Source of the DNA: Candidatus Parcubacteria bacterium
Lineage (GTDB): Bacteria; Patescibacteriota; Patescibacteriia; Patescibacteriales; BM507
Length of the DNA stretch: 64,000 nt
Direction: 5' to 3'
Assembly: GCA_002869265.1 (NCBI GenBank)
Contig: PKTH01000036.1
Location: 168,525-232,524, forward strand
A program made the position numbers and the translations under genes. This document shows positions 1-64,000 of the stretch, piece after piece (position 1 is the first letter of the stretch; each line of letters starts with the position of its first letter). Below the pieces are notes generated by a model that did not search any database, was not told where the DNA came from, and saw only the letters and a list, made by a program, of their open reading frames with translations.

Positions 1-2
1 CA

Positions 3-1436
3 TTGGGAAGGATTGAGAACTTTGATAATTATATTTTATCTCTTTTTTCAAGAGATTCTAGCAATTCCCTGGTTATCGCTAGATCAAATATTGGTAAGCA
101 AATTTCTTTTATTTACACAGTTTTGTTCATATTGTGTTTCTCAGTTATTGTTTTGTTTATTATTTTTCTTCTATATATCAAGAGAGTGTTAAATAAAGAC
201 ATTCTAAGGCCACTAACAAGTTTAAAGGACTTTGCAATTAAGATTGGCAGAGGGGAGGTCCATGAAATGCTTAAATATAAAAAGGATAATGAAATAGGGG
301 CACTTTTTAATGTATTTAATGAAATGGACAAGGAATTAAAATCTAGCAATAAGGAGTTAAACAAAAAGATTTATGAACTAAAGTCTAAAGAAAATATTGA
401 ATCATTGGTGCAGGCACTTACAGATGGCGTAATAATGTATGACATTGATAAAAATATTATACTTAAGAATTGGTCTGTTAAAAAGATATTAGGGCTTGAT
501 AACGAAAACTTTTCTTTAAACAACTTGTATAAAATGTTTTCAAAATATAATTTAGAATTTCATGTTGATCTATCTTTAAGGACTGAAGAGCTCTATCGTA
601 TACCTAATGTAGAGCTTATTGGGAGAAAATTCGAAATATTAATAACACAGGTAACGGATTATAATAAAAAAGTTGTGGGAGGGGTTATGATATTACATCA
701 AAAGGGGGAGGAAAAGCAAGGATTTCGAAAAGAAAAAAATGATTGTGATTTCAAAACAATTTTATCACCTAATTTTAAAAACCCTCTAGCTTATATTAAA
801 CTTTTTACAGAAATGTTAAGTTCAGGCAAGCTGGGCGATTTGACTAACGAACAAAAGGACTGTATTGATAATATACACAGGTCATCGATGACAATGGACA
901 CCATAGTGCATAAACTTGAAGATGTTGCGATGGTTGCCAATGCAGAAATTGATCTTCAGACAGAGGAAATCACTATAATCCCTTTTCTAAAAGATCTTAT
1001 TAGAGAATACTCGGAAAACAAAACTATCGAAAATGTTGACTTTAGTTTTCGAGAAACAATAGACGAAGAAGTTAAAATAAATTTGGATAGAAATATTTTT
1101 TCAAAAATTTTTCACTCGATAATCGATAACTCAATTCTCTATACCAATGATATTAATACTTTAATTGATATTGAGATTAAAGAACTTGGTTTTAGTTATC
1201 TTTTGAGCATAAAAGACAATGGGATGGGAATTCCGGATTCAGACCAAGATAAAATTTTTGGTAAATTTTATAGAGCGAGTAATTCAATATCAAGAAACAT
1301 AAAGGGGTCAGGAACCAGTTTGTATGTAGCTAAAAAACTTTTAAATAGATTTGGAATAGAAATATTTTTTGAATCAAATCTTGGAGAAGGAACTACATTT
1401 TTTATAGAAATCCCAAAAGCGGGGATGAGGTCATAG
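3..1436 (+). CDS. Sensor histidine-kinase-like membrane protein (TM-HAMP-PAS-DHp-HATPase_c); true 5' end probably outside the window
   Basis: 477-aa ORF open to the window edge. TM ISFIYTVLFILCFSVIVLFIIFLLYI. HAMP-like LRPLTSLKDFAIKIG..ALFNVFNEM. ATPase boxes N IIDNSILYT, G1 DNGMGIP, F FGKFYR, G2 GSGTSLYVAKK. The H-box reads SPNFKNPL instead of SHELRTPL. Confidence 0.8.
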   Translation: MGRIENFDNYILSLFSRDSSNSLVIARSNIGKQISFIYTVLFILCFSVIVLFIIFLLYIKRVLNKDILRPLTSLKDFAIKIGRGEVHEMLKYKKDNEIGALFNVFNEMDKELKSSNKELNKKIYELKSKENIESLVQALTDGVIMYDIDKNIILKNWSVKKILGLDNENFSLNNLYKMFSKYNLEFHVDLSLRTEELYRIPNVELIGRKFEILITQVTDYNKKVVGGVMILHQKGEEKQGFRKEKNDCDFKTILSPNFKNPLAYIKLFTEMLSSGKLGDLTNEQKDCIDNIHRSSMTMDTIVHKLEDVAMVANAEIDLQTEEITIIPFLKDLIREYSENKTIENVDFSFRETIDEEVKINLDRNIFSKIFHSIIDNSILYTNDINTLIDIEIKELGFSYLLSIKDNGMGIPDSDQDKIFGKFYRASNSISRNIKGSGTSLYVAKKLLNRFGIEIFFESNLGEGTTFFIEIPKAGMRS

Positions 1437-1446
1437 AATTGAATAC

Positions 1447-1478
1447 AAAAAAAGACCATTTTTTAGGTCTTTTTTTGT
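1447..1478. terminator. Bidirectional hairpin between the convergent kinase gene and gyrB
   Basis: AAAGACC-attttta-GGTCTTT, with A-run upstream and T-run downstream. Confidence 0.6.
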
Positions 1479-1486
1479 ATAGTATT

Positions 1487-3505
1487 TTATACGTCTAGAT
1501 TTTCTACTTTCTTTGCATGAGTTTGGATGAAATTTTTTCTTGGTAAAACATTACCACCCATTAACATGTCAAATATTTCATCAGCTCTTGCAGCATCTTC
1601 AACAGTCACTTGCTTCATCTTCCTTGTCTTCGGGTCCATAGTTGTTTCCCAAAGTTGTTCAGGGTTCATTTCACCAAGACCTTTGTATCTTTGAATTTGA
1701 ATCTTGGCACCACCTTTTTTTGTTTCAACAACTTCTTCTTCCTCTTCATTATTATCATCCTCCTCATTGTTTTCCTCAGCAGCTTCTTGAACCTCACCAC
1801 CGAGCTCTTTTATTCCGGAAACCTTCTCTTCTTCAGTGTAGACATATTTTACAGTAGACCCCTTTTTTAGTTGGTATAAAGGCGGTTGAGCGATATAGAG
1901 ATGACCATTTAGAACCAACTCAGTGAAATGTCTATAGAAAAGAGTTAAAAGCAAGGTTCTGATATGAGATCCATCAACATCAGCATCAGTCATAATAACA
2001 ACTCTGTGATAACGTAGTTTTTCAATATCAAATTGTTCGTCAATGTTTGTCCCAAGGGCGATAACCAGATTCTTTACTTCGTTATTAGCAAGCATTTTAT
2101 CTAATCTGGCTCTTTCTACGTTTAGGATTTTACCGCGCAAAGGAAGAATAGCTTGGAACTTTCTATCTCGACCCTGTTTAGCAGAGCCACCAGCAGAGTC
2201 TCCCTCAACAATAAAAAGCTCAGATTCCTCTGCTTTTCTACTGGAACAATCTGATAGTTTCCCAGGAAGGGTCATGCCATCAAGAGCTCCTTTTCGTAGA
2301 ATACTGGCTCTTGCAGTTCTAGCGGCAATTCTTGCTTGAGATGATAGAATACATTTGCCGATGATTGCCTCAGCTTCTTTTGGGTGTTCTTCAAGGAAAA
2401 TAGTAAAATTTTCACCGAAGACAGATTCAACAGCTCCCTTGACTTCAGCATTTCCAAGCTTTCCTTTGGTTTGACCTTCAAATTGAGGATCAGTTATTTT
2501 TACACTAATTATTGCAGTTAGACCTTCACGTACATCATCGCCAGTAAGATTTTCGTCTTTTTCTTTTAGGAGGTTGTGATTTCGGGCATAAGAGTTAAGA
2601 GTCCTTGTAAGGGCAGTTCTAAAACCAACCATATGAGTTCCACCCTCAAGGTTGTAAATATTATTAGCAAAGGCAAGTGCCGTTTCGTTGAATTCGTCGT
2701 TATATTGAAGAGCAACTTCTACCTTAGCTTCTGGAGTGTCTTTTTCTACATAATAAATAGTTTCATTTTTAACAGATTTGTTGTGATGAAGTGCTTTAAT
2801 GTAAGACTTGATACCCCCCTCGAAATAGAATTTGTAATCTTTTTCCTTGTGACCATCTCTTCTGTCATGAATACTCATGGTGATTCCCTTGGTGAGATAT
2901 GCTTGCTGTCTTAGTCTGTCTAAAATTTTACCCCAATTGAATTCTGTTTCGGAGAAAATAGAGTCATCTGGTTTAAAGGTGATTATGGTCCCGGTTTTTG
3001 TTGTTTTGCCAGTGCTTTTAATTTTGGCTTTTGGTTTTCCAATTTTATATTCTTGAGACCAAATTTTGCCATTTTGATGAACCTCGGCTTTTAGATAGGT
3101 TGATAGGGCATTTACTACTGAGACACCAACACCGTGCAATCCTCCAGAAACTTTGTAGGCTCCATCTCCAAATTTACCACCAGCGTGGAGTTTTGTTAAA
3201 ACTGTTTCCAGGGCAGAGATACCAGTGGCCTTATGAACGTCGACAGGGATACCACGACCATTATCTTCTACTTCAACCATTCCATCTGAGAGAAGGGTAA
3301 CTTTTATTTCTGTAGCATATCCGGCCATTGCTTCATCAATTCCGTTATCCACAACTTCCCAAATTAAGTGATGCAGACCAGCTGAAGCAGTTGAACCAAT
3401 ATACATTCCTGGTCTTTTTCTTACTGGGTCAAGACCTTCAAGGACTGTTATCGAATCAGCGGAGTATTCTTTACTGCTGCTTTTTTTAGCTTTTTCTTTC
3501 GCCAT
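1487..3505 (-). CDS. gyrB: DNA gyrase subunit B
   Basis: 672 aa. Motifs LEGLDPVRKRPGMYIGS, GGLHGVGVSVVNALS, EGDSAGGSAKQGRDR, PLRGKILNVE, RYKGLGEMNPEQLWETTM. Carries an acidic insert EAAEENNEEDDNNEEEEEVVE before the RYKGLGEM motif. Confidence 0.97.
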   Translation of the reverse strand: MAKEKAKKSSSKEYSADSITVLEGLDPVRKRPGMYIGSTASAGLHHLIWEVVDNGIDEAMAGYATEIKVTLLSDGMVEVEDNGRGIPVDVHKATGISALETVLTKLHAGGKFGDGAYKVSGGLHGVGVSVVNALSTYLKAEVHQNGKIWSQEYKIGKPKAKIKSTGKTTKTGTIITFKPDDSIFSETEFNWGKILDRLRQQAYLTKGITMSIHDRRDGHKEKDYKFYFEGGIKSYIKALHHNKSVKNETIYYVEKDTPEAKVEVALQYNDEFNETALAFANNIYNLEGGTHMVGFRTALTRTLNSYARNHNLLKEKDENLTGDDVREGLTAIISVKITDPQFEGQTKGKLGNAEVKGAVESVFGENFTIFLEEHPKEAEAIIGKCILSSQARIAARTARASILRKGALDGMTLPGKLSDCSSRKAEESELFIVEGDSAGGSAKQGRDRKFQAILPLRGKILNVERARLDKMLANNEVKNLVIALGTNIDEQFDIEKLRYHRVVIMTDADVDGSHIRTLLLTLFYRHFTELVLNGHLYIAQPPLYQLKKGSTVKYVYTEEEKVSGIKELGGEVQEAAEENNEEDDNNEEEEEVVETKKGGAKIQIQRYKGLGEMNPEQLWETTMDPKTRKMKQVTVEDAARADEIFDMLMGGNVLPRKNFIQTHAKKVENLDV

Positions 3506-5732: not shown

Positions 5733-6386
5733 ATGACCCAAAAAATCGTTTTAAATGCAAAAAAAAGAGAATCTGGTGAAAAGATTAGTGAAATTAAAGA
5801 AGCCGCTGGAGTTCCTGCAGTTATTTACGGACAAGAATATGAAAACATGTCTTTGAAAGTAAATTCAGTGGAACTTGATAAAATCTACGGAGAGGCAGGA
5901 TCTTCTGCTATGATTGATCTAAAAGTTGATTCATTAGAAAAGCCCGTAAAGGTTATCATAAAAGATTTGCAATATAATCATAAGAACCAAATAATACACG
6001 TTGATTTTTATAAGATTGATGAGTCAAAGAAACTTTCAACTTCAATTGCTCTAGAGTTTATTGGAGAATCTGAGGCAGTTGAGGTTAAGAAAGGGATCCT
6101 GCTTAAAAATATGGATGCTATTAATGTGGAGTGCTCTCCAGCTGACTTAGTGTCTCATTTTGATGTTGATATCTCTGTTTTGAAGGAAGTTGGAGACACA
6201 ATAACAGTAGCTGATCTTAAAATTTCAGAGGCATACACAATTGCCAACGATTCTCATGATTCTGTGGCGACTGTTGTAGAACAAAAGAAGGAAGTAGAAG
6301 AGGAGCCAGTAGAAACAGCAGAAGCGACTGAAGAAGGGAAAGAAGAAGTCGAGAAAGCAGAAGGCGAAGATAAAAAAGAAGAATAA
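5733..6386 (+). CDS. rplY: Ribosomal protein L25 / general stress protein Ctc form, with an acidic C-terminal tail
   Basis: 217 aa. N-terminal L25 signature (R..G...S.ELR..G.VPAVIYG-like: KRESGEKISEIKEAAGVPAVIYGQ). C-terminal tail is E/K-rich. Confidence 0.85.
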   Translation: MTQKIVLNAKKRESGEKISEIKEAAGVPAVIYGQEYENMSLKVNSVELDKIYGEAGSSAMIDLKVDSLEKPVKVIIKDLQYNHKNQIIHVDFYKIDESKKLSTSIALEFIGESEAVEVKKGILLKNMDAINVECSPADLVSHFDVDISVLKEVGDTITVADLKISEAYTIANDSHDSVATVVEQKKEVEEEPVETAEATEEGKEEVEKAEGEDKKEE

Positions 6387-6399
6387 AATATTCTCAATA

Positions 6400-7461
6400 A
6401 TGGAGGCGAATAAACAAAAAAATATCTGGAAATATTTGGATGTTACTCTTATTGTAATTTCTCTTATTTTAAGTTTTTTCGCCTACAAAATTATTACAAA
6501 ATATTACTCAAATATTGAGGAGGACTTAGTGAAAGTCGTTGAAGAGGAGAAAGTAGAGGAGTCTAGTTGCCTTGACTGCGTTGAACGGGGAATAGACGGT
6601 GTTTTAGTACCAAAAGGAGAAGAAAATATATTCCCAGTGGCTATAGTAATAGAAAACCACTTAGAGGCAAGACCTCAAGCCGGGATTGCAGATGCTAACT
6701 TAGTTATAGAGGCTGAGGCCGAAGGTGGTATTACTCGTTTTTTAGCTTTTTTTGCTGACCTACAAAAACCAGACAGAATAGGACCCATTAGGAGCGCTCG
6801 GCCATATTTTATTGATTGGTCTCGAGGACTTTCGGCTCTATTTGTCCATGTAGGAGGAAGCCCTGAAGCTTTAGCAAAAATAGTAAAAGAAAATGTAGTC
6901 AATTTAAATGAATTTTATAACGGGAAATATTTTTGGAGAGACGGAGTGAATGAAGCTCCTCATAATGTTTTTAGTTCAGGTGAAAACATAGATAAATATT
7001 TAGAAAGAAAAGGACTTGATAAGGGTGAATATATTTCTTGGATATTTAAAGATGAAGCAGAATTTGACGATAGAGGTGACTCGAGTTCAATAGTTATTAA
7101 TTTTGAAAGAGATCTTTATGCTGTTGAATGGAAATACAACAAAGATGAAAATTCATATATTAGATACACAGCTGGTGACGAGCATAGAGATGAGGATGGT
7201 GATATGGTAAAGGCAAAGAATGTTCTTGTTGCCTACATGGGGGCAGAAGTTCTAGATAGTGAACTGAGATTAAAAATTGACAATATTGGTGAAGGCGAGG
7301 CGGTAATTTGTCTTGATGGTTTTTGTCAAAAAGGCTTTTGGCAAAAAAATAGTTCTACAGCTAGAATGCGTTTTTATAATGAAGATAAGAAAGAGGTAGA
7401 ATTCAATAGGGGAACTACCTGGCTAGAAGTTCTTAAGCCAGAAATAGAAGTTGTCTATTAA
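6400..7461 (+). CDS. DUF3048-family membrane-anchored protein (YerB-like)
   Basis: N-terminal TM, then PVAIVIENHLEARPQAGIADANLVIEAEAEGGITRFLAFF..GPIRSARPYFIDW, which is typical of DUF3048. Confidence 0.75.
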   Translation: MEANKQKNIWKYLDVTLIVISLILSFFAYKIITKYYSNIEEDLVKVVEEEKVEESSCLDCVERGIDGVLVPKGEENIFPVAIVIENHLEARPQAGIADANLVIEAEAEGGITRFLAFFADLQKPDRIGPIRSARPYFIDWSRGLSALFVHVGGSPEALAKIVKENVVNLNEFYNGKYFWRDGVNEAPHNVFSSGENIDKYLERKGLDKGEYISWIFKDEAEFDDRGDSSSIVINFERDLYAVEWKYNKDENSYIRYTAGDEHRDEDGDMVKAKNVLVAYMGAEVLDSELRLKIDNIGEGEAVICLDGFCQKGFWQKNSSTARMRFYNEDKKEVEFNRGTTWLEVLKPEIEVVY

Positions 7462-8332: not shown

Positions 8333-9364
8333 TTAGACAGTTTTCTTTAGTTCTTTAATTATGTCAGAAATACCGCCGTCCATTATTTTTGGAATATTGC
8401 TCCAGTTTTTGCCTATCCTGTGGTCCGTGATTCTGTCTTGTGGGAAATTATAGGTACGTATTTTTTCACTTCTATCTCCTGAGCCAACTTGCTCTTTTCG
8501 GGCAGCTGCGTCTTCCCGAGCTTTATCTTCTTCAATTTTGGCAAACACCCTAGATCTAAGTACTTGCATCGCCTTTGCTTTGTTTTGTTGCTGTGATTTT
8601 TGATCCTGACAAGTCGCAACTACATTTAGGGGAAGGTAGGTGAGTCTAACCGCTGAATTAGAAGTGTTGACGCTTTGACCGCCAGGCCCAGAAGCTGAAT
8701 ATACATCAACCTTTAGATCGGCGTCTTTTATTTCGAAATCAACCTCTTCCGCTTCGGGTAATACAGCGACAGTTATTGCGGAGGTGTGTACTCGGCCTTG
8801 TTTTTCAGTCTCAGGGACTCTTTGTACTCGATGAGTGCCTCGTTCCCACTTAAGGTTTTTAAATACATCGCGGCCTTTTACAGAAAAAACTATTTCTTTG
8901 AAACCTCCTATGCCAATTGGGCTCGAGCTAATAATCTCTAATTTCCAGGAATTGTTTTCAGCGAAGCGTGAGTACATACGAAAAACTTCTGCTACAAATA
9001 GTGCAGATTCATCACCGCCTGTCCCAGCACGTATCTCTACGATAACGTCTTTCTTATCATTTGGATCTGCCGGATTTAGTTCCTCATAAATTTTCTTATT
9101 GAGCTTCTCAAATTCTTCTTCTAGATTGATGTTTTCTTCTTTGGCCATTTCAATCATTTCTTTGTCATTCTCTTTTGAGATTAGCTCTTTGTTATCGCTA
9201 ATCTGTTTTTCTATATCATTTGCACGATGAATCATCTCAACTAGATCTTTTAATTGAGCGTGTTCCTTTGAAACTTTTGAAAAATTATTAACATCTGAAA
9301 CTATTGTAGGGTCAGATAGCTTTTTTTCTAGTTCGTTAAATTTTTTGATTATATCTTCGTGCAT
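8333..9364 (-). CDS. prfA: Peptide chain release factor 1
   Basis: 343 aa. GGQ motif (SGPGGQSVNTS). RF1-type P-x-T tripeptide in RVQRVPETEKQGRVHTS. Confidence 0.95.
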   Translation of the reverse strand: MHEDIIKKFNELEKKLSDPTIVSDVNNFSKVSKEHAQLKDLVEMIHRANDIEKQISDNKELISKENDKEMIEMAKEENINLEEEFEKLNKKIYEELNPADPNDKKDVIVEIRAGTGGDESALFVAEVFRMYSRFAENNSWKLEIISSSPIGIGGFKEIVFSVKGRDVFKNLKWERGTHRVQRVPETEKQGRVHTSAITVAVLPEAEEVDFEIKDADLKVDVYSASGPGGQSVNTSNSAVRLTYLPLNVVATCQDQKSQQQNKAKAMQVLRSRVFAKIEEDKAREDAAARKEQVGSGDRSEKIRTYNFPQDRITDHRIGKNWSNIPKIMDGGISDIIKELKKTV

Positions 9365-9371
9365 ATATAAA

Positions 9372-9421
9372 ACGGCTATTTTTATTTATACTAAAAAATT
9401 AACATAAATAAAAATAGCCGT
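9372..9421 (-). terminator. Long AT-rich hairpin between rpmE and prfA
   Basis: Perfect 18-bp inverted repeat ACGGCTATTTTTATTTAT / ATAAATAAAAATAGCCGT with a 14-nt loop. Confidence 0.6.
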
Positions 9422-9428
9422 AAAATAT

Positions 9429-9713
9429 TTATTTCTCCTCCTCTTGTGCTTTGACTTCTGCTCTAGCTGCTCGTTTTACTTTTTTACCTTTTCTGACTTT
9501 TGCTGTCTCTTTTTGAGCATCTACTTTTGCTTTAAACTTCTCAACTCTTCTTGCTGTATCAACTAGCTTTTGCTTGCCAGTGTAGAATGGGTGGCAATTT
9601 GAGCAAAGTTCCGTTTTTGTTTCATCAACAGTAGAACCAGTTTCAATAACATTTCCACAAGCACAAACAACCTTTGCTTTCGTGTTGTAGTTTGGGTGAA
9701 TATCTTTTTTCAT
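9429..9713 (-). CDS. rpmE: Ribosomal protein L31 (Zn-ribbon type) with a Lys-rich C-terminal extension
   Basis: MKKDIHPNY.., CACG...[12 protein letters not shown]. Confidence 0.95.
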
Positions 9714-11364: not shown

Positions 11365-11622
11365 TTATAGGTGGATACTTGGAGATCGTGCAAGTTTTTC
11401 GTTTTTTTCCTTGATCGATCGTCTCTCGATTCCTGAAAGGATGTTGAAAAAAACAGCCAAGAGCGCAGACCCGTAAAAAGAGACTAGAATGTTTATGGGG
11501 CTTGCGAAGAAGTTTTCGTAAAGACTTACATTGTATTCTTCGTAAATTCCGTGTCCAATAGCGGTCCCCACAGCAATTAACCCTGCAAAGATAGAAATAA
11601 AAAAATAAATATCCTTTTGCAT
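11365..11622 (-). CDS. Small hypothetical membrane protein (2 TM)
   Basis: 85 aa with two hydrophobic helices. SD AAGGAGAG lies 5 nt upstream of ATG. Has its own terminator. Confidence 0.65.
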   Translation of the reverse strand: MQKDIYFFISIFAGLIAVGTAIGHGIYEEYNVSLYENFFASPINILVSFYGSALLAVFFNILSGIERRSIKEKNEKLARSPSIHL

Positions 11623-11697
11623 TTTCTCTCCTTTGTAATAAGTTTTCGTAATTTTAATAAAAAAGAACCTTTTCTAGGTTAACACAATAATAAATAT

Positions 11698-13017: not shown

Positions 13018-13046
13018 TTGACTAATATTCTATTTTCGGTTAATAT
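13018..13046 (+). promoter_or_regulatory. Sigma-70-type promoter
   Basis: TTGACT (13018-13023), 17-nt spacer, TAATAT (13041-13046). Confidence 0.55.
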
Positions 13047-13106
13047 AAAAAGGTTGTTCTTTTAATAAAAATATATAAACTAAACACAAATATAAGGGGA
13101 GAGAAA

Positions 13107-13367
13107 TTGAAAACAAACATTAAGATAGAAACTGGGTTTAAGTCAAACCTCCAGACAAGGTGCGGTGCCAGGATAAAAGTTACCAAGATTGACTCTATTA
13201 ACAAAACCTTCGAAGGAGAGGTTCATACTGACAAATCTACAGCCCTAAGAGGGAGCATGACGTCTTCATGGCAATTTAATGGAAGAAACCTTGAGGGTAT
13301 TTATGATTTGAATGTAGTTTCACTATCGAGCGTTCGTTCGCTTTCCAAAAAGTCTGCTGTTGCTTAG
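13107..13367 (+). CDS. Small hypothetical soluble protein
   Basis: 86 aa. TTG start preceded by GGGGAGAG. Followed by a terminator. Confidence 0.5.
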   Translation: MKTNIKIETGFKSNLQTRCGARIKVTKIDSINKTFEGEVHTDKSTALRGSMTSSWQFNGRNLEGIYDLNVVSLSSVRSLSKKSAVA

Positions 13368-13380: not shown

Positions 13381-13412
13381 GCGATCAGTTTCTTGATCGC
13401 TTTTATTTTTTT
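13381..13412 (+). terminator. Intrinsic terminator between two small genes
   Basis: GCGATCA-gtttct-TGATCGC followed by TTTTATTTTTTT. Confidence 0.75.
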
Positions 13413-13424
13413 CTAGGAGGTTTA

Positions 13425-13715
13425 GTGATAAATTTATTAGATTTTTATGGTGTTGGAGACGTTTTGCCGAGAAGAGATGGAGGTGAATTAGAGATTGTAG
13501 AGAGGTTGAGTAAAAAAATATTTTTAGGCGCAATCTTGTCTTCAATTGGTGGTAAACGTGAGTTTATAGTTAAATTCGACAAAGAAGGGAAAAATATTTA
13601 TGGGGTTAATAATTTTGGCGCTGATGTCGATTTACGAAAAGCATTACATGGAAAAACACCCTTATCAGGACAGAATAACGAGACTTTCTCAGATAAAAAT
13701 AGAATAGCAGTATAG
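13425..13715 (+). CDS. Small hypothetical protein
   Basis: Start set at GTG 13425, 4 nt after AGGAGG (13415-13420). The ORF-track start ATG 13374 would translate through the terminator hairpin. Confidence 0.5.
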   Translation: MINLLDFYGVGDVLPRRDGGELEIVERLSKKIFLGAILSSIGGKREFIVKFDKEGKNIYGVNNFGADVDLRKALHGKTPLSGQNNETFSDKNRIAV

Positions 13716-13778
13716 ACATACAGGCGATCTAAAATAGGTCGCCTTTTTTATTTAAAAACTCCGTGTTAGTATAGAAAT

Positions 13779-16742: not shown

Positions 16743-17212
16743 AAAAAATAACTCTTATAACGCTCTTCTTAGTTATCCTAACTGCATTATCAGCTTGTTC
16801 AAAAAAAGAGGAAACATATATTATGGACCAGTTGGCCTCTGATGGTAAATTCCATTACTCAAATCAAGACCTTGGTTTTTCGGTAGAGTTACCAGAAGAA
16901 TTTGATCATTACCAAACACAAAGGATTTCATATTCTGATAATGTAAAAGTTGAATTCTATGTTCCTACAAGTGATCAAACGTATATACAAAAAATCCCTA
17001 GCTACGAAGAATTTTTGTCTGTGAGTGTTTATGACGAAGATTCTTTCAATCAGGATGATTTTGATCTCTCTCGGGAAAATCTAAAAACCATCAAAGGGAA
17101 CTCGAAGGTTTACTTAATTAAATACTGGGAACAAGTTCCGAATGACTGGGTAAGTAAATGGAACAGTGAAATGAGAGATAGTATTATTTCAAGTATTAAA
17201 CTATTAAAATAA
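16739..17212 (+). CDS. Hypothetical lipoprotein
   Basis: 157 aa. Signal peptide with lipobox LSAC. Confidence 0.6.
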   Translation: MKKITLITLFLVILTALSACSKKEETYIMDQLASDGKFHYSNQDLGFSVELPEEFDHYQTQRISYSDNVKVEFYVPTSDQTYIQKIPSYEEFLSVSVYDEDSFNQDDFDLSRENLKTIKGNSKVYLIKYWEQVPNDWVSKWNSEMRDSIISSIKLLK

Positions 17213-17213
17213 A

Positions 17214-18920
17214 ATGGTAAATCCAAACATTAGTTTAAAAAAAGACAAAGCACCAACCCTTACTCCTGACGCTAAGGCGCTTTTTAGAGCTGTTTATCGT
17301 GATGAGGGGAATGAAGAAGAGGCTAGTTCTAACGTCCCGAAAATAAAGGTCTCAACGCTAATTTCTAAAATGGCTTTTTACTATGAAAAGATTAGAAATT
17401 CAGTTGATTATAAAGAGGAGTATCTCCTAAGAAAAAACGCTATTGAAAGAATACTTAGAAGAGAAATTGTGATTCAGGGATCTTTTAAGTTTAGGAAAGT
17501 CGAGAGTGCAGAGGTTTCAAAAAGCCTTTTAACTGATTTGATCCGAGCTGGATATCTACCAAATAATAAAATTCCAGAATCAAAAATAGATGAGATAGCC
17601 TTGATTATAAAAAAATACATCCAGTTAAAAGCGGTAAGTATTCAGAAGATTAGACCGGCTGATTACTTGAAGAAAGGAGATGTAAACAAGGCAAATGAAT
17701 TATTAAATATAAGAAACGAGTTAGCAACTTGGATTTTAGCGGTTGCAGCAAGTGACATAGAAGATAGATTAAAGATTGGTACTGTTGATAAGGTTATTAC
17801 TGAAAACATGTACAAAGAGATATCCAAGACAGTTCAGTTGCCAGATGACACAAAGTATAATAAAGACTTGGAAATACAAGTTCTTTTGAGTATTTATAGA
17901 AACTACTTAAAATATGACCGAGATATGCTTGGGCATGTTTTAATGAAGTATTATGAAGGGGATATTGCTAAAATGGATGATCGTGACATCGAAAAGATTG
18001 CTCACAACATGATGAAGTTCAGATCTTTAATAGACTCTCAGATTGATCACCCACTAACAAACCAGTTAAATAGAATAGCTTCCAGATATACTGTTTTTTT
18101 CTCAATATTAAAAGAGGTTTTGTCAGATGGACCTGAAGAGGTCTATAACAATATAGTAAAAGATCCTAAATCATTCCCAAGACATATTAAAAGAGTTTGT
18201 GAAAGAATTTATGGCTCGACCAGGAAGAAGTTGTGGCGAGCTGCTATGAGAAGTTTTGTATATATTTTCTTAACGAAATCAGTTCTTGCTGTGATACTTG
18301 AAGTGCCAGCTACTAAATTTTTTGGAGAAGAGCTGAATTTTATTTCTCTGGCAATTAATGTTTCTTTCCCAGCATTGTTACTTATTTTTGTCGTTGCTAT
18401 AACTAAAAAACCAAATGATGAAAATACGGCTAAAATTGTAGACGGGATAAATCAGGTGTTTTTTGAAGAAGCTCAAGATCAAGACAAAATAAAACTAAGA
18501 AAACCTTCAAAAAGGAGAAGTACAGTTAAAAACTTTATATTCGCAGTTCTATACACCATAACTTTCTTCACTTCATTCGGAGCAGTTCTATGGGTCCTAG
18601 ATAAGATTCATTTCTCATGGGTCAGTATGGTGATATTTATGTTCTTCTTGGCCTTTGTTAGTTTCTTTACAATCAGGATTAGGAAGAGCACAAATGAGCT
18701 GTTGGTCGTTGAACCAAAAGAAAGTATATTTGGCTTGTTCTCAGATTTCTTTTATGTTCCAATAGTAGCATCTGGAAAATGGTTAAGTGAAAAATTCGAC
18801 AAAGTAAATGTCTTTGTCTTTGTCCTAGATTTTATTATTGAAGCTCCATTCAGGATGTTTGTGGAGATTACTGAAGAATGGACCAAATATGTGAAAGAAA
18901 GAAGGGACGAGATAGTTTAA
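17214..18920 (+). CDS. Hypothetical large membrane protein (soluble N-terminal half, multi-TM C-terminal half)
   Basis: 568-aa ORF. TM helices lie after about residue 340. No family recognised. Confidence 0.6.
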   Translation: MVNPNISLKKDKAPTLTPDAKALFRAVYRDEGNEEEASSNVPKIKVSTLISKMAFYYEKIRNSVDYKEEYLLRKNAIERILRREIVIQGSFKFRKVESAEVSKSLLTDLIRAGYLPNNKIPESKIDEIALIIKKYIQLKAVSIQKIRPADYLKKGDVNKANELLNIRNELATWILAVAASDIEDRLKIGTVDKVITENMYKEISKTVQLPDDTKYNKDLEIQVLLSIYRNYLKYDRDMLGHVLMKYYEGDIAKMDDRDIEKIAHNMMKFRSLIDSQIDHPLTNQLNRIASRYTVFFSILKEVLSDGPEEVYNNIVKDPKSFPRHIKRVCERIYGSTRKKLWRAAMRSFVYIFLTKSVLAVILEVPATKFFGEELNFISLAINVSFPALLLIFVVAITKKPNDENTAKIVDGINQVFFEEAQDQDKIKLRKPSKRRSTVKNFIFAVLYTITFFTSFGAVLWVLDKIHFSWVSMVIFMFFLAFVSFFTIRIRKSTNELLVVEPKESIFGLFSDFFYVPIVASGKWLSEKFDKVNVFVFVLDFIIEAPFRMFVEITEEWTKYVKERRDEIV

Positions 18921-18933
18921 TAAAAAAATATAT

Positions 18934-19209
18934 ATGGAAAATAAATTTCAAAATTGTTTAAAAAAGAAAGAAAAAGTCATAGGAAGCATCGCTTCTTTTT
19001 TAGCTATCGTTATGTTCGTAGCACTGATAGAGGTATTTATGTCAAATTTAAGAGGTGATAGCAGGATAATAATACAACCTTTAGCAACAGCCTTTAATGG
19101 GTTCTTTTGGAGTCTTTATGCTTACGGCAGAAAGGACTATTTTTTGTTAGTTCCGAATCTTTTAGCACTTATCCTTGGAGCTTTAACTGTGGTATCGGTT
19201 TACGTTTAG
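18934..19209 (+). CDS. SemiSWEET-like (MtN3/PQ-loop) 3-TM transporter
   Basis: 91 aa with three TM. FFWSLYAYGRKDYFLLVPNLLALILGAL fits the SWEET pattern W..YG...D......N..G. Confidence 0.55.
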   Translation: MENKFQNCLKKKEKVIGSIASFLAIVMFVALIEVFMSNLRGDSRIIIQPLATAFNGFFWSLYAYGRKDYFLLVPNLLALILGALTVVSVYV

Positions 19210-19212
19210 TAT

Positions 19213-19968
19213 ATGTCAATATTATATATAGTAGCAACACCAATTGGTAATTTGGAAGATATTAGTTTAAGAGCACTTCGCATATTGGGCGAAGTGGATT
19301 TTATTTTATGTGAAGATACTAGAGTAACCGGTGTTTTATTAAATAGATATGATATTAAAACAAAGACTATTTCTTTTCATCAGCATTCTGAAGATAAAAA
19401 AATAGACAATCTTTTGAGTTTGTTAGAGGAGGGGAAAAATCTGGCTTTGGTTTCCGATGCTGGCACTCCTGGAATTTCTGATCCAGGTGGAAAACTAGTT
19501 CAAGCTGTCATAGATAAATTTGGACAGGATGTTTCGATAGAATCTGTTCCAGGCCCTTCGGCTGTTACCGCCGCTCTTTCAATTTCAGGGATTCCAACGG
19601 ATAAATTTGTTTTCCTAGGATTCCCTCCACACAAAAAGGGCAGGATGACTTTTATAGACAAAATATTCGATTCAGAATTGCCCGTGGTAGTTTATGAATC
19701 AAAGCATAGAATAATAAAATTTTTAGAAGAATTAAAGGAGCATAACAAAGAGATAATAGAGCACAACAAAAGAGTAGAAATGGAATTTGTAAAGTCGAAA
19801 GATATTGAAGCAAGGAGGAAGGCAACAGTTTCGTCAGTGGTGGTTTGTCGAGAGCTTTCTAAAATGCACGAGACAGTTTACCGTGGAGATATAGATCACA
19901 TATTAGATAAAATACGAGACAACAAAGACGACCAGAGAGGCGAGTTTGTTGTTATTGTTGGAAAATAG
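19213..19968 (+). CDS. rsmI: 16S rRNA (cytidine1402-2'-O)-methyltransferase RsmI
   Basis: LYIVATPIGNLEDISLRALRILGEVDFILCEDTR. GTPGISDPG. Has a K/E-rich insert near the C-terminus. Confidence 0.9.
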   Translation: MSILYIVATPIGNLEDISLRALRILGEVDFILCEDTRVTGVLLNRYDIKTKTISFHQHSEDKKIDNLLSLLEEGKNLALVSDAGTPGISDPGGKLVQAVIDKFGQDVSIESVPGPSAVTAALSISGIPTDKFVFLGFPPHKKGRMTFIDKIFDSELPVVVYESKHRIIKFLEELKEHNKEIIEHNKRVEMEFVKSKDIEARRKATVSSVVVCRELSKMHETVYRGDIDHILDKIRDNKDDQRGEFVVIVGK

Positions 19969-19969
19969 C

Positions 19970-20401: not shown

Positions 20402-20403
20402 AT

Positions 20404-44340: not shown

Positions 44341-44520
44341 ATGGCAATGATCGCATATGGCGCTCTTTCGCTCTTTGTTTCTTTTATACTGACCCTGTTT
44401 ATTTCATTTGCTGGTGAATACTCAGCGACTCAAATTATCTGTTTCTTCTGGGCCGCCTGTGGCCTTAGCTACATGCTGATCGCTTTTCTTTCCAAGGACG
44501 TTCAATATGAATCACCCTAA
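44341..44520 (+). CDS. Unannotated 59-aa 2-TM membrane protein
   Basis: Manual translation gives MAMIAYGALSLFVSFILTLFISFAGEYSATQIICFFWAACGLSYMLIAFLSKDVQYESP*. SD AAGGAGA lies 6 nt upstream. A terminator hairpin lies at 44539-44568. Confidence 0.6.
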   Translation: MAMIAYGALSLFVSFILTLFISFAGEYSATQIICFFWAACGLSYMLIAFLSKDVQYESP

Positions 44521-46521: not shown

Positions 46522-46666
46522 TCTTTTTAAGATGCTATAGTAATAAAACCGCATTTTTGCGGTTTTATTGTTGATAAAATACCAAATTGCTGTTATCATA
46601 GAATTTGATCATTAAATAAATTTGTAAAGAAAATTTCTTTAAACCAAAAAAAAGAGGAGAATTAAG

Positions 46667-46858
46667 ATGAACGAAAGAAGAATTACAACTGCTGAAGAAG
46701 GGTTGGTGGTATTAATATTTTCAACGATATCCTCAGTACTGCTTATTGAGGTATTCTTATTGCCAGCCTATTGGCTGATTTTATTGATCTTATTTATACA
46801 TAGTGGGACTCTTCTTATTAGCTACACAGCCCCTGTCTCTGATGAAATGCTTTTATAG
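46667..46858 (+). CDS. Small 2-TM protein, 1 of 3 in tandem
   Basis: 63 aa. SD GAGGAG lies 7 nt upstream of ATG. Confidence 0.55.
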   Translation: MNERRITTAEEGLVVLIFSTISSVLLIEVFLLPAYWLILLILFIHSGTLLISYTAPVSDEMLL

Positions 46859-46868
46859 AGGAGGTGAT

Positions 46869-47078
46869 ATGTTTAGAATACTAGAAAGTAAATTGGCAAA
46901 GGTGCTGTGGTCTTTTTTTATTATAGTGATGTTCTCAGCTCTATCAGCCTATATTATTACCGAGGCTGTGTTCAAGGCTAAAGGGGCAAGTCTATATTTC
47001 ATAACAATGTATAGTATTATTATGTCAATTATGGCTTTTAGTCATACAACTCCTGAGTGGAGGGAGAATGATGTATAG
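46869..47078 (+). CDS. Small 2-TM protein, 2 of 3
   Basis: 69 aa from ATG 46869, directly preceded by GAGGAGGTGAT. The ORF-track start 46803 is upstream of the SD. Confidence 0.6.
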   Translation: MFRILESKLAKVLWSFFIIVMFSALSAYIITEAVFKAKGASLYFITMYSIIMSIMAFSHTTPEWRENDV

Positions 47079-47256
47079 TTTAATACATGAAGAAAATGTT
47101 AGAGAGATTTGGAGCATATTGGTTGTTGTATTTTTTTCTCTTATTTCGGGTGTAGTGATTTCAGCTGCCTTTCAGCTTGGAACATTTGCAATATTTCTTT
47201 CAGCATTTGTTGTACTTTTCATTAACGCTAATGTATATTTCTTAGCGAGCAATTAA
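47068..47256 (+). CDS. Small 2-TM protein, 3 of 3
   Basis: 62 aa. SD GGAGGGAG. Overlaps the previous gene by 11 nt. Confidence 0.55.
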   Translation: MMYSLIHEENVREIWSILVVVFFSLISGVVISAAFQLGTFAIFLSAFVVLFINANVYFLASN

Positions 47257-47259
47257 AAA

Positions 47260-47290
47260 TCAGACCACCAAAAGGTGGTCTTTTATTTTG
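47260..47290 (+). terminator. Intrinsic terminator
   Basis: AGACCACC-aaaa-GGTGGTCT followed by TTTATTTT. Confidence 0.8.
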
Positions 47291-47303: not shown

Positions 47304-47331
47304 TTGACACAAAAAGAATAAATGATAAAAT
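47304..47331 (+). promoter_or_regulatory. groESL promoter
   Basis: TTGACA (47304-47309), 16-nt spacer, TAAAAT (47326-47331). Confidence 0.65.
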
Positions 47332-47335
47332 AGCA

Positions 47336-47362
47336 TTAGCACTCTAAAGTATATAGTGCTAA
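47336..47362 (+). promoter_or_regulatory. CIRCE operator (HrcA binding site)
   Basis: TTAGCACTC-taaagtata-TAGTGCTAA versus consensus TTAGCACTC-N9-GAGTGCTAA, one mismatch. Lies between the promoter and groES. Confidence 0.85.
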
Positions 47363-47415
47363 TAGAAATCAAATAATTAACTTATATTCCACATTTTTGG
47401 GATATAAAAAAGCAT

Positions 47416-47706
47416 ATGAATATAAAGCCAATTCACACAAATGTGGTTGTTAAACCAAAAAAAGAAGATGATATTACAAAATCTGGTATTATTTTACCTG
47501 GATCAAGCGAGAAAGAGAGACCGGAGCAAGGAGAAGTAGTCGCTGTCGGTGAAGGAAAATTACTTGATGACGGGAAAAGAGCCCCGATGAGCGTAAAGGT
47601 TGGTGACAATGTCATGTTTAAAAAATATTCACCCGATGAAGTAAGTATTGATGGAGAAGACTACTTAATAGTAGCTGAAGGTGACATTATTGCAATTTTA
47701 AAATAA
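47416..47706 (+). CDS. groES: Co-chaperonin GroES
   Basis: 96 aa. IKPIHTNVVVKP...GIILPGSSEKERPEQGEVVAVG. Confidence 0.95.
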   Translation: MNIKPIHTNVVVKPKKEDDITKSGIILPGSSEKERPEQGEVVAVGEGKLLDDGKRAPMSVKVGDNVMFKKYSPDEVSIDGEDYLIVAEGDIIAILK

Positions 47707-47710
47707 TTAA

Positions 47711-49384
<1,674 letters not shown>

Positions 49385-49436: not shown

Positions 49437-49667
49437 TTACCACATTCTTTTGAAAGAAATTGTCATTCTGAAAAATATTGTTCCAAGTAAAACTCCCCAG
49501 AAAAAGCAAGCCATAATCTGGTCTTGTTTTTCCCAAAAACCATTTTCAAAAAAAATACTTAAGGAAAAAGAGAAAAATACCAATGAGCAGATTGCGAGCA
49601 AAATAAGTGCGATAAAATGAATTGTCTTCATCCATCGTAGTGGAATATTTAGTCCCGGTAACATCAT
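49437..49667 (-). CDS. Small hypothetical membrane protein
   Basis: 76 aa with 2 TM. SD AAGGAG lies 6 nt upstream. Confidence 0.55.
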   Translation of the reverse strand: MMLPGLNIPLRWMKTIHFIALILLAICSLVFFSFSLSIFFENGFWEKQDQIMACFFWGVLLGTIFFRMTISFKRMW

Positions 49668-49678
49668 ATTTCACTCCT

Positions 49679-50092
49679 TTATTCTTTAGCAAGGGTAAGG
49701 TAGGGAGACCCTTTTGAATTTCTTCTAATGGTATCACCAATTTTATAATGTTTTATTACGTCTGGCCTATCTTTATATAGTTTTGACTCTGTTACGTATT
49801 CATCTTCAATTAGCACCTTGTATTCAAGTAAAAGGATTCCATTTTCATAGCAAATCATTTTAATTAAAAAATCGGTATTTAGTGCCATTAGATTAATGTT
49901 GTCAATTGGGTCTCCAAAAAATGCTTCTCTGCAGACATTGTAGGTAGCATAAATCATAAGAACAAAAGTAATAAATAAGGCAAATATTGAGTAAAGTGTT
50001 TCGTGTAGCTCGTAAGCAAGGACACCAAATGAAATAAAAGAAATGACGATGAGAATGAAGATGATCCAAAATTTTCCACCTAAAGGTTTCAT
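49679..50092 (-). CDS. Hypothetical membrane protein
   Basis: 137 aa with 2 N-terminal TM. SD AAGGAG lies 6 nt upstream. Confidence 0.55.
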   Translation of the reverse strand: MKPLGGKFWIIFILIVISFISFGVLAYELHETLYSIFALFITFVLMIYATYNVCREAFFGDPIDNINLMALNTDFLIKMICYENGILLLEYKVLIEDEYVTESKLYKDRPDVIKHYKIGDTIRRNSKGSPYLTLAKE

Positions 50093-50230
50093 TTTTAACT
50101 CCTTTATTCTGAGGTTTATGTAAAGAACAAAATTAGCTAAATTTAGTAAAAAAATATCATTTCACGTAGTTTTTGTCAACATTAAGAACAAAGGCAAGAA
50201 TTAAATTTTTTAAAAATCAGCTTAAGGTGA

Positions 50231-54283: not shown

Positions 54284-54478
54284 CTAGTCCGGGTTTCTGA
54301 AAAATATCAGAAAATAGTTTGGAACCCAGGATACAAAAACACCAAGAACAGAGAGCCAAAAGTGAAAAGAAAAAGTCCAGTTATTCAAAAGCAGAAAATA
54401 AAGGGCAAAGATTGAAAAAATCAAAGTATTGACAACTCCAACAATAAAACAAACGAAAAAGGTTTTTGAATCTTTCAT
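54284..54478 (-). CDS. Small hypothetical 2-TM membrane protein
   Basis: 64 aa. SD AAGGAGGT lies 6 nt upstream of ATG. Confidence 0.6.
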   Translation of the reverse strand: MKDSKTFFVCFIVGVVNTLIFSIFALYFLLLNNWTFSFHFWLSVLGVFVSWVPNYFLIFFRNPD

Positions 54479-54553
54479 TGGATTACCTCCTTTTCTTCAA
54501 TAAAAAATAGCCATTATTAGCTATCGAAAACTATTATATCAGAAATTCTAAGT

Positions 54554-54582
54554 TTGTCAAAGAGAATTTATTAATGTATAAT
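54554..54582 (+). promoter_or_regulatory. parAB promoter
   Basis: TTGTCA (54554-54559), 17-nt spacer, TATAAT (54577-54582). Confidence 0.6.
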
Positions 54583-58997: not shown

Positions 58998-59106
58998 ATT
59001 TAAAAAGGTAAATTGATTAATTCACTTAGAATTTTATCTAATATTTAATAAAATTGCAAATAAAAAGCCATCTGTAATTAAGATGGCTATGCTGTTTGTA
59101 ATTCTT

Positions 59107-59430
59107 TTAATCTAGTGTCTTTTCAAAAGCTTCCCTTGACTCAAATTCATGCACTGTTAAAGAACAGGGAGTGTTAGCTCTTAGAGCAAGAAGAAACAGA
59201 ATGAAAGTGGAGTAAGGAAGATCAGAGTAAACTCCCCCTTTATGAATCCTAAGAAGGTGGGAGCTTACAGGTTCAGTTTCCTGGTCAATGAGCAGGATGC
59301 GTCCGTCTCCCTCGTTGGAGAAACGAAATGGACAGCAAGGATCTTTTACGGGGATATTTTTCAGGAGGGTCTTCTGTAAATCACTGCTGGATAAGTTTGT
59401 TGTTAAAAGTGCTTTGTGATACTTGGACAT
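59107..59430 (-). CDS. Hypothetical protein
   Basis: 107 aa. SD GGGAGG lies 5 nt upstream of ATG. A hairpin lies at 59064-59090 downstream. Confidence 0.55.
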   Translation of the reverse strand: MSKYHKALLTTNLSSSDLQKTLLKNIPVKDPCCPFRFSNEGDGRILLIDQETEPVSSHLLRIHKGGVYSDLPYSTFILFLLALRANTPCSLTVHEFESREAFEKTLD

Positions 59431-59597
59431 ATTTGCCTCCCTTGTTAGAAGCTAGACAATTAACTCTTTTGTTATTCTTGTGTTTAGAATTTACATTTTA
59501 TTTAATGTTCAATTGTATTTAGCAAGTAAATCATAGAAAAGATGGAAATTCAAGGTGGTATTTGTGTTCAGGAAACGAATATGTTAAAATATATTCA

Positions 59598-60942: not shown

Positions 60943-61383
60943 ATGAAAGTTATCCTCTTAAAAAATGTTCAAGGTTTGGGGGGGCCTGGAGATGTTAAAG
61001 AAGTAAAGGAAGGTTATGCAAAAAACTTTTTATTTCCACAAAAATTAGCAGAAGTTCTTAGCGATAGAAAAGTAAAAGATATTTCAGACAAACAAAAAAG
61101 AGAAGAAAAGAAAAAGAAAACCGCTCAAAAAAATAAAGAAAAGCTTGCAAGCAAAATAAATGGAAAATCTTTTAAATTTAGCTTGAGAGCAGATGACACA
61201 GGAACTCTATACACAAAACTAAGTTCAAAATATATAGCGGAAAGACTTAAAAAAAGTAATTTTATGGTTAACGAAAAAGATGTTATTTTATCTGCCCCTC
61301 TAAAAAAGACAGGAGAATATATTGCAGAACTTAGGCTTGGTGGTAGTAAAGCAAAAATAAAAATATTAATAACAAGAAAATAG
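60943..61383 (+). CDS. rplI: Ribosomal protein L9
   Basis: [36 protein letters not shown]. Confidence 0.95.
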
Positions 61384-63109: not shown

Positions 63110-63439
63110 ATGTTTAAAATTTTTGGTTCCAAGCCTGAAGTAATTATGCCTGGGAGAGACGTAAAAGAAAGCACAAGAGAAAATCTTTCCCACCTAAAAG
63201 AGGGTATTGATTTTGCTTTTGTGTACGCCAAAAGTGGTAATGAGCTTCTAATCAAGCAAGAAGTTAAAGACGGAGAACTTATCTTTACAAATGAGGATAT
63301 TGCCACTGGGAACAATACCTCAAGCCCAATTAAAAATATTACTGACATAGAAAATCTAAATAAGTATTTTGATGTTCCAGAAGAAATGATCCTTAGGGCT
63401 AAAGAGCTACTAGAAGAACTTAAATCAAATCATGAATAG
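63110..63439 (+). CDS. Hypothetical protein
   Basis: 109-aa ORF. No family recognised. Confidence 0.45.
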   Translation: MFKIFGSKPEVIMPGRDVKESTRENLSHLKEGIDFAFVYAKSGNELLIKQEVKDGELIFTNEDIATGNNTSSPIKNITDIENLNKYFDVPEEMILRAKELLEELKSNHE

Positions 63440-63683
63440 AATTCAATTTTTTGACAGATCCTCGCAAATCGCAATTCCTCTTTTTACTTTATCGGGGATT
63501 TTGGCAATTTCATTGAAACATCCCGCACTCGGATTAGTGTTGAATTTAACTGCGCAACCTTTTTGGATATATTCAACTTGGAAATCATATAAAAAAGCTG
63601 GGCAGATTGGGATGTTTATAAATACCATTGTTATGACACTTATTACTGTCTTTGGTGTCTTAAATTATTGGGTGTTTTCTTAG
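63432..63683 (+). CDS. Small hypothetical membrane protein (3 TM)
   Basis: 83-aa ORF. Overlaps the previous gene by 8 nt. Confidence 0.45.
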   Translation: MNRIQFFDRSSQIAIPLFTLSGILAISLKHPALGLVLNLTAQPFWIYSTWKSYKKAGQIGMFINTIVMTLITVFGVLNYWVFS

Positions 63684-63756
63684 TTGACATTGCTTTGTTT
63701 TTATAATATTTTTTAAATATTGTTCTTTTCAATAATATTAGCTAAAGGAGATTGTC

Positions 63757-63996
63757 ATGTTAGAAGTGTTGCGGGAAAAGCTTATCGGTCAAAAGCTTGA
63801 TATTCAGTGCAAAGATAAAAGAATAGGAAACAAGACTGCAAAATGCAGCGAAGTACAACCATGTCAGGGGAGATATCGTATAGTCTTTGATAATCAAGAA
63901 TCGCAAATTCTTTCAGACATTATTATTACGGGCTCTATCGTTAGCGGGAGAGCTTCAACATTGGTGATACCAAGGGTGACAATTAGGGTTATCTAA
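63757..63996 (+). CDS. Small hypothetical protein
   Basis: 79 aa. SD AAAGGAG lies 6 nt upstream of ATG. Confidence 0.45.
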   Translation: MLEVLREKLIGQKLDIQCKDKRIGNKTAKCSEVQPCQGRYRIVFDNQESQILSDIIITGSIVSGRASTLVIPRVTIRVI

Positions 63997-64000
63997 TCCA

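Follow-up and report, generated by a model that had tools for sequence, protein, structure and literature searches.

Two translation-initiation regimes probably coexist in one cell of the bacterium that supplied the 64,000-nucleotide stretch of contig PKTH01000036.1 studied here (the whole stretch is called the window): core genes start without a Shine–Dalgarno (SD) sequence in a distinctive A/U-rich context, and a layer of 14 accessory open reading frames (ORFs), among about 75 in the window, starts behind strong SDs. The window is 35% GC, and its host is, on sequence grounds, a Parcubacteria metagenome-assembled genome related to Candidatus Falkowbacteria (Patescibacteria, or candidate phyla radiation (CPR)). 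The nearest species representatives by GroEL are Candidatus Falkowbacteria and other Patescibacteria, at 69–77% identity, and a protein search found closer relatives at 87–89%. We sampled about 74 kb of this genome, that is, the window and a further 10 kb leftward, together with the groEL neighbourhoods of relatives graded by GroEL identity: L003–L008 at 69–77%, L094 at 80%, and the sister genomes L089, L091 and L093 at 87–88%. A further relative, L083, has a 79%-identical CitMHS transporter and was the best of four loci from a metagenome scan with that transporter.

All 14 SD strings quoted in a preliminary description of this DNA were found in place, each with its GGAG core 5–8 nt upstream of the start codon; across all genomes, the spacer from GGAG to start was 5–9 nt in 35 of 35 SD-led starts (median 6). 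Pairing energies, computed for an ORF set built blind to SDs and against the canonical tail ACCUCCUUU (assumed to stand for the host's own), were bimodal in the window: the 14 starts lay between −8.2 and −13.1 kcal/mol, and nearly every other start in the set lay above −4. The consensus of the minority class was AAAGGAGGU, and extensions beyond the core matched the canonical tail at 46869 (GAGGAGGTGAT), at 54478 (AAAGGAGGT) and in L004 (AAAGGAGGTGAT, with twelve complementary bases). From this consensus we infer that the host's 16S ribosomal RNA (rRNA) carries the canonical tail; the strength and conservation of these canonical SDs argue that the window lineage keeps it.

AGGAGG-type hexamers are common by themselves in the purine-rich coding strand (21 sense AGGAGG within long genes), so the non-random feature is the combination of SD, ATG and long ORF. 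Among strong-scoring ATGs outside ORFs of at least 140 amino acids (aa), 11 of 13 opened an ORF of 59 codons or more; for the other ATGs there the share was 12.6% (binomial p = 8e-9). The two that did not are G-runs, not GGAG motifs, and every strong site without a productive ORF pairs with a chance TTG or GTG. Depletion of SD motifs inside genes, considered as a sign of anti-SD activity, was dropped, as AGGAGG within coding regions showed no significant departure either way (20 observed versus 19 expected from synonymous shuffles).

The 14 ORFs are arranged as follows, with soluble and membrane character predicted and transmembrane segments abbreviated TM:

11365–11631, minus strand: SD-led ORF of 85 aa with two TM segments; AAAGGAGAG, GGAG core at 11628–11631, 5-nt spacer, ATG at 11622.
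13098–13367, plus strand: SD-led ORF of 86 aa, soluble; GGGGAGAG, TTG start at 13107; promoter-like site 13018–13046, terminator-like hairpin 13381–13400.
13416–13715, plus strand: SD-led ORF of 96 aa, soluble; AGGAGGT, GTG start at 13425 (a start also called by NCBI and JGI); terminator-like hairpin 13722–13744.
37655–38099, minus strand: SD-led, Cys-rich ORF of 144 aa (38089), antisense between atpH and atpA; AGGAGG; terminator-like hairpin 37645–37622.
43121–43890, plus strand: SD-led ORF of 252 aa; AGGAGGT, TTG start at 43132; diverged beta-carbonic-anhydrase-like motifs CxDxR and SHxxCGA.
44330–44520, plus strand: SD-led ORF 44341, 59 aa with two TM segments; AAAGGAGA; upstream terminator-like hairpin 44241–44263 and promoter-like site 44268–44296.
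46571–47281, plus strand: three-ORF unit with promoter-like site 46571–46599 and terminator-like hairpin 47262–47281; ORFs 46667–46858 (63 aa), 46869–47078 (69 aa, GAGGAGGTGAT) and 47068–47256 (62 aa), all small membrane proteins and each with its own SD.
49437–50179, minus strand: two-ORF unit after groEL with promoter-like site 50179–50151; ORFs 50092–49679 (137 aa) and 49667–49437 (76 aa), both with AAAGGAG.
54284–54560, minus strand: SD-led ORF 54478–54284, 64 aa with two TM segments; AAAGGAGGT; perfect TTGACA-16-TATAAT promoter-like site 54560–54533.
59066–59440, minus strand: SD-led ORF 59430–59107, 107 aa, soluble; AAGGGAGG; terminator-like hairpin 59088–59066.
63747–63996, plus strand: SD-led ORF of 79 aa, soluble; AAAGGAGA.

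With these promoter-like and terminator-like sites, the latter lying directly 3′ of 38089(−), 59430(−), 13107 and 13425, the SD-led ORFs look like self-contained units. They fill otherwise empty gaps of 200–900 nt; NCBI PGAP and JGI call them, Logan calls omit most, and the three callers disagree on several. Most had been described as small membrane proteins, which stood for the eight predicted as such (59–137 aa, mostly with two TM segments) and not for the six soluble ones. A search for known RNA genes overlapping SD-led ORFs found only tRNA-Leu, and no RNA family was associated with them. Paralogy among the small membrane ORFs was rejected, the likeness being weak and at the level of composition, as was mRNA folding as a driver, for which the difference was marginal (−5.8 versus −4.2 kcal/mol, p = 0.05) and is accounted for by the G-rich SD itself.

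SD use followed gene class. At the Pfam gathering score, none of the 14 SD-led genes had a family, and the approximately 40 Pfam-positive genes of the window and left extension were all SD-less (Fisher p = 1.2e-6), in agreement with the earlier claim that conserved genes lack SDs; the left extension contributes six further SD-less genes. This was robust to start-site correction: no conserved gene gained an SD when alternative in-frame starts were tried, and genes whose longest ORF begins at TTG have a nearby ATG in A/T context. The proposed split between orphan and conserved genes was borne out in so far as no SD-led gene has a Pfam family, but not in its converse, as 16 Pfam-less genes of 59–831 aa are also SD-less (for example, 3652, 10059, 14774, 16467, 17214, 63110, 63432 and three in the left extension). 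Lack of a family therefore does not predict an SD.

The SD-less genes share a start mark of their own. Across 46 SD-less ATG starts in the window, the frequency of A was 0.54–0.72 from −6 to −2 and that of U was 0.76 at −1; G was essentially absent from −3 to −1, and extra A was seen at −11 and −12. The signature was the same in 26 operon-internal genes (gaps of ≤40 nt) and in 20 others, and was sharper in 59 conserved genes of relatives, with U at −1 in 88%. Genes of this default class include the following:

35144–42655, plus strand: atp operon (atpI-like, B, E, F, H, A, G, D, C); all starts SD-less with an A/T leader, most ending ..AAAU AUG, with atpA an exception.
47304–49384, plus strand: groES–groEL; promoter-like site 47304–47331, 5′ untranslated region (UTR) of about 78 nt, both starts SD-less.
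5733–6386, plus strand: rplY (L25), SD-less.
9713–9429, minus strand: rpmE, SD-less.
60943–61383, plus strand: rplI, SD-less.

Promoter-like sites lie 18–78 nt upstream of the CBS gene, groES and murA, and so the mRNAs of this class would be leadered and the A/U signal would belong to translation, not to a −10 box. Leaderless initiation was considered for the class and ruled out by these sites and by the operon-internal genes with the same context. The SD-led starts do not carry the AAAAU signature: their start-context score was −2.1 versus +1.1 for the default class (p = 1.6e-4), and U stood at −1 in 29% of them versus 76%. The two start architectures are alternatives, not additive.

The split recurred in relatives. 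In L003–L008, long ORFs were SD-less save 2 of 70, and the five rare SD-led ORFs scanned against Pfam were all family-less. In the sister genomes, which keep synteny with positions 36–60 kb of the window, none of about 37 Pfam-positive genes was preceded by an SD, and 12 small Pfam-less ORFs were SD-led, most of them at positions syntenic with those of the window. Five positions were shared: after groEL on the minus strand (SD-led ORFs of 134, 115 and 130 aa in L089, L091 and L093); between atpC and the CBS gene (SD-led two-TM ORFs of 57–60 aa in L089 and L091, counterparts of 44341); the 43132 family; between atpH and atpA (in L091, an antisense, Cys-rich SD-led ORF of 71 aa); and upstream of parA (where SD-led ORFs of 71 and 79 aa precede tRNA-Leu(CAA) in L091). 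Because the same five positions hold SD-led ORFs in genomes with 87–88% identical GroEL, those loci predate the window genome. At six of nine independently annotated small gap genes in relatives, the SD sits at the annotated start.

Protein sequences at the shared positions have diverged far, with 20–31% identity between window and sisters for syntenic SD-led ORFs versus 50–96% for core genes, and the syntenic ORFs of the three sisters all keep GGAG. In an alignment, across four genomes, of the divergent stretch that separates the post-groEL ORF from the AI-2E gene, the invariant parts were the AI-2E-proximal end and A.AA.AAAGGAG; AAAGGAG was the only invariant block of the 5′ UTR before the small ORF. 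Other loci are confined to the window genome in this comparison. The three-ORF unit 46667–47256 had no counterpart in L089 or L091 and was not found in L083, ORF 59430(−) had none in the closest relatives (the gap there is 147 nt in L089), and near groES of L083 we found none of the window's small ORFs. The L083 result made the small ORFs look at first sight like recent insertions, a picture that the sister genomes changed.

The proposal of two initiation modes, made in the preliminary description, thus gained support from three sides: start contexts that exclude each other, a split that recurs in relatives, and an SD that is the only invariant 5′-UTR block. We infer that both classes are translated. 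In the default regime, all recognisable core genes would use SD-independent initiation on leadered, unstructured A/U-rich mRNA, at starts marked by A from −6 to −2, U at −1 and no G, in first-in-unit and operon-internal genes alike. The contacts would probably be made by bS1, or by the 30S subunit binding to single-stranded A/U RNA, and U(−1) may extend the codon–anticodon helix to A37 of the initiator tRNA, an extension that Esposito and colleagues reportedly described in 2003. In the minority regime, the extended SD (AAAGGAGGU) would pair with the canonical 16S 3′ tail 5–9 nt before the start. This regime appears confined to lineage-restricted accessory genes, mostly of 57–145 aa and encoding membrane (mostly two-TM) or Cys-rich proteins, which would lie in promoter–SD–ORF–terminator units of their own, wedged between or antisense to core operons. 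Such genes would evolve very fast or turn over while selection holds the SD. On the simplest account, core genes of this lineage, like those of Bacteroidia, would have gone over to SD-independent initiation, with a ribosome that would still recognise a canonical SD. The accessory layer possibly keeps the SD as part of a portable, self-sufficient expression unit, or possibly because leaders without A/U context need a start signal.

Several observations weigh against this two-regime reading. Sampling was limited to the loci given above, some of the SD-led ORFs in relatives came to light through a scan for SD plus ATG and so are subject to ascertainment, and a search for rRNA genes found none in the window, the 16S 3′ end being absent from every fetched locus. 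Tsurumaki et al. 2022 (PMC9297842) could detect the CCTCCT anti-SD motif in no more than 48% of the 16S genes of Parcubacteria. In codon usage, the SD-led set falls between real core genes and shadow ORFs. Only 43132 (E = 4e-26) and 38089 (E = 4e-6) have significant homology to their syntenic counterparts; profile searches linking most of the window's SD-led ORFs to the relatives' syntenic ORFs were not significant, so some of the apparent conservation could be repeated cassette replacement. The 43132 homologue in L003 has no SD. L094 carries two Pfam-positive SD-led genes (17113–21078), and the common denominator of the SD-led class is therefore 'accessory', not strictly 'family-less'.

In a different account, the SD-led ORFs are recently acquired, moron-like cassettes from SD-using donors (other CPR bacteria, phages or plasmids), the SD is a leftover, and the shared positions are insertion hot spots with repeated replacement. 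Composition speaks for it: GC content at third codon positions (GC3) was 0.36 in the SD-led set versus 0.28 (p = 3e-4), family-less genes without an SD having core-like GC3; the excess was repeated in the sister genomes (+0.04, p = 0.006), and the codon-usage score was lower (p = 1e-4). The SD-led ORFs are also more often on the minus strand (6 of 14, compared with 6 of 46 default-class genes, p = 0.02), often antisense to surrounding operons. They are singletons among 5.8 and 1.8 billion proteins, with 10 of 10 looked-up clusters at 90% identity holding only this organism; they have autonomous promoter/terminator structure; the trio 46667–47256 and 59430(−) are missing from the closest relatives, and none of the small ORFs turned up in L083; most syntenic counterparts escape profile searches; and the SD-led enzyme pair of L094 adjoins an HTH_32 gene. 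Yet the same five positions are filled in the sisters by SD-led ORFs of similar length and architecture, which retain some likeness in the UTR and at the N-terminus; the 43132 homologue of L091 is an unmistakable one and is SD-led; and an SD that is the sole invariant UTR block indicates selection, not a decaying relic. The window held no transposase or integrase signature, no phage or defence family (PHROG, PADLOC), and no repeats common to the SD-led ORFs or mobile-element scaffold, and homologues in another taxon that would indicate a donor are lacking. We therefore regard wholesale recent acquisition as unlikely. The foreign or recent origin raised in the preliminary description is viable for at most a few loci, those specific to this genome, and as the ultimate origin of the class; it is weakened for at least five loci.

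It is conceivable, and in our judgement highly improbable, that the GGAGG-type motifs are real RNA elements with another main role (5′ stabilisers, ribosome stand-by sites, RNase protection or regulation), initiation being SD-independent throughout. For most genes the ribosome evidently needs no SD to initiate, coding regions show no depletion of SD-like hexamers, and short units with their own promoter-like and terminator-like sites would benefit from 5′ protection. Against such a role, the 5–9 nt spacing in all 35 starts is as tight as in functional SDs; each cistron of the multi-ORF units has its own SD (46869, 47068, 49667), which fits initiation and not protection of a 5′ end; and SD-led starts, being without the A-rich/U(−1) signature, need some other start signal. 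That the small ORFs are annotation artefacts, chance GGAGs before chance ORFs, deserves next to no credence: codon-usage scores overlapping those of shadow ORFs, the lack of homologues, the omission of most from Logan calls and the frequency of SD-like motifs in the coding strand would suit it, but these ORFs show the association of SD plus ATG with long ORFs noted above, occupy otherwise empty gaps, have promoter-like and terminator-like sites alongside, include eight predicted membrane proteins (mostly two-TM), are called independently by NCBI PGAP and JGI, and have SD-led equivalents, alike in length and layout, in the corresponding places of three further genomes.

The closest known parallel is in Bacteroidia, for which Flavobacterium johnsoniae is the model of SD-independent, adenine-assisted initiation (Baez et al. 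2019, PMC6847099; Jha et al. 2021, PMC7797042). Both combine a low-GC genome in which nearly all genes are SD-less with a small minority that has strong extended SDs matching the canonical anti-SD, and the A-rich start context of the window resembles in part the Kozak-like one of Bacteroidia. In Bacteroidia, however, that minority consists of ribosomal protein genes (rpsU, rpsR, rplI and others), autoregulated through sequestration of the anti-SD by bS21/bS18 together with bS6, with essentially one such gene in F. johnsoniae; here it consists of 14 of about 75 ORFs, small family-less accessory genes, and the ribosomal protein genes seen (rplY, rpmE, rplI) are SD-less, with rpsU, rpsR and rpsF lying outside the sampled sequence. 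The dominant context also differs, with U at −1 and A from −6 to −2 here and A at −3, −6, −12 and −13 (or −11 to −14) in Bacteroidia; U at −1 is a stronger position-specific signal in the window and relatives than A at −3 is in Bacteroidia. In Flavobacteriia, bS21 makes the anti-SD conditionally available (McNutt et al. 2023, PMC9976891; Naeem et al. 2026, PMC13000453), and bS21 is reported to be often absent in Parcubacteria (PMC9297842). By analogy, a ribosomal protein, or heterogeneity among ribosomes, might control access to the anti-SD here, so that the SD-led units would form a translational regulon of small membrane and zinc-finger proteins, turned on together in a particular state (host attachment, for example, or stress, or immaturity of the ribosome), with housekeeping genes always SD-independent; we hold this to be a long shot. 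The study of Tsurumaki et al. 2022 (PMC9297842) concerns the same superphylum, and the SD-less core genes agree with its finding that SD:anti-SD pairing does not hold throughout the Parcubacteria; it dealt with rRNA and ribosomal proteins, not with mRNA start contexts or gene classes. Our literature search, of incomplete coverage, found SD-poor lineages and anti-SD loss in Parcubacteria and did not find a split between core and accessory genes.

GeneMarkS-2, by Lomsadze and colleagues (2018), is said to distinguish genome groups with SD ribosome-binding sites (RBSs), non-SD RBSs and leaderless classes, and mixed genomes in that scheme likewise hold two populations of start context. The known mixed case, however, has leaderless first genes and SD-led internal ones, whereas SD-less genes here have leaders and some of them are operon-internal; the two classes divide by the age or conservation of a gene and not by its place in an operon. 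Prophage morons, too, are small ORFs that bring a promoter, an SD and a terminator of their own and sit between functional operons, variable among relatives and atypical in composition. The SD-led ORFs differ from these in having no prophage or mobile context, and several keep their chromosomal position across species.

Where a genome has SDs, they are as a rule concentrated on strongly expressed housekeeping genes or, in Bacteroidia, on a few genes for ribosomal proteins; here the rule appears inverted, the core genes (atp, groESL and ribosomal protein genes) being without SDs and strong, apparently selected SDs marking a fast-evolving layer of tiny proteins. If this holds genome-wide, SD presence would be a handle on the lineage-specific small-protein repertoire of CPR bacteria, a repertoire with poor annotation and a possible part in their episymbiotic lifestyle; selection could be seen to preserve a ribosome's recognition of SDs for the sake of a minority of genes; and gene-class-specific translation could be put to the test in a phylum that has not been cultured. 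Gene calling in CPR genomes is affected as well: RBS training with a single model would mis-start or miss one of the two classes.

Individual SD-led loci yielded further observations. For 43132, the preliminary description had offered a beta-carbonic-anhydrase-like call at the level of motifs only; both motifs (CxDxR and SHxxCGA) are present, but the gene belongs to a small conserved family that keeps them, with an SD-led homologue of 273 aa in L091 (30% identity, E = 4e-26). The family has no Pfam match and, from its motifs, is predicted to have a beta-carbonic-anhydrase-like zinc site. A profile search of the family against the PDB gave no match, and an AlphaFold2 model built without an alignment was unusable (predicted local distance difference test score, 34). 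A Pro_CA_2 gene adjoins 43132 (region 42680–43890); its orthologue in L083, 37% identical, lies elsewhere (2800–3150). No relation between 43132 and this neighbour was found when paralogy was considered. The related loci in L091 and L003 are 6230–7051 and 8699–9538. A search of 5.8 billion proteins returned only self matches for 43132 and 50092(−), and an exhaustive HMMER search of 1.84 billion representatives with 38089(−) returned itself and one weak match, a DUF4379/DUF723 treble-clef zinc-finger repeat protein.

ORF 38089(−) lies in a 585-nt segment (37620–38204) that splits the atp operon between atpH and atpA. The same gap holds the 71-aa version in L091 (711–926) and a stop-ridden remnant in L089 (1369–2071), and measures 10–115 nt in more distant relatives. 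A further SD-led two-TM ORF lies antisense between atpG and atpD in L091 (3725–3943, minus strand) and L093 (2005–2196, minus strand); the window's atpG–atpD gap is 42 nt, without this ORF. The SD-led pair of L094 comprises an IGPS-like gene and a B12-binding radical-SAM gene with perfect SDs (AAAAGGAGGT, TAAGGAGGT); the HTH_32 gene beside them is transposase-like, and the core genes around the pair are all SD-less.

In the window, tRNA-Leu(CAA) (54199–54115, minus strand) follows SD-led ORF 54478(−) and its perfect sigma-70-type promoter-like site. The order is the same in L091 (16565–17108), where two SD-led ORFs precede the tRNA, and L089 has the tRNA without an ORF. The promoter–ORF–tRNA-Leu order in window and L091 suggests that the small ORF may lie in the leader of the tRNA transcript.

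Among the default-class genes, GroES (47416–47706) was only 53–58% identical to that of the three sisters although the adjacent GroEL was 88% identical; the sisters' GroES proteins were 84–91% identical to one another, and other fetched relatives, at 43–64%, were no closer to the window's. A giant ORF of 3526 aa (22492–33072), with an ordinary SD-less A/T leader, is richer in GC (0.41) than its surroundings and contains several internal repeat families with units of 26–57 nt. Close by, a highly acidic ORF of 59 aa (33784–33963), with no SD and no Pfam family, is built of imperfect 27–30 nt repeats (EEAP-type) and has a very strong codon-usage score.

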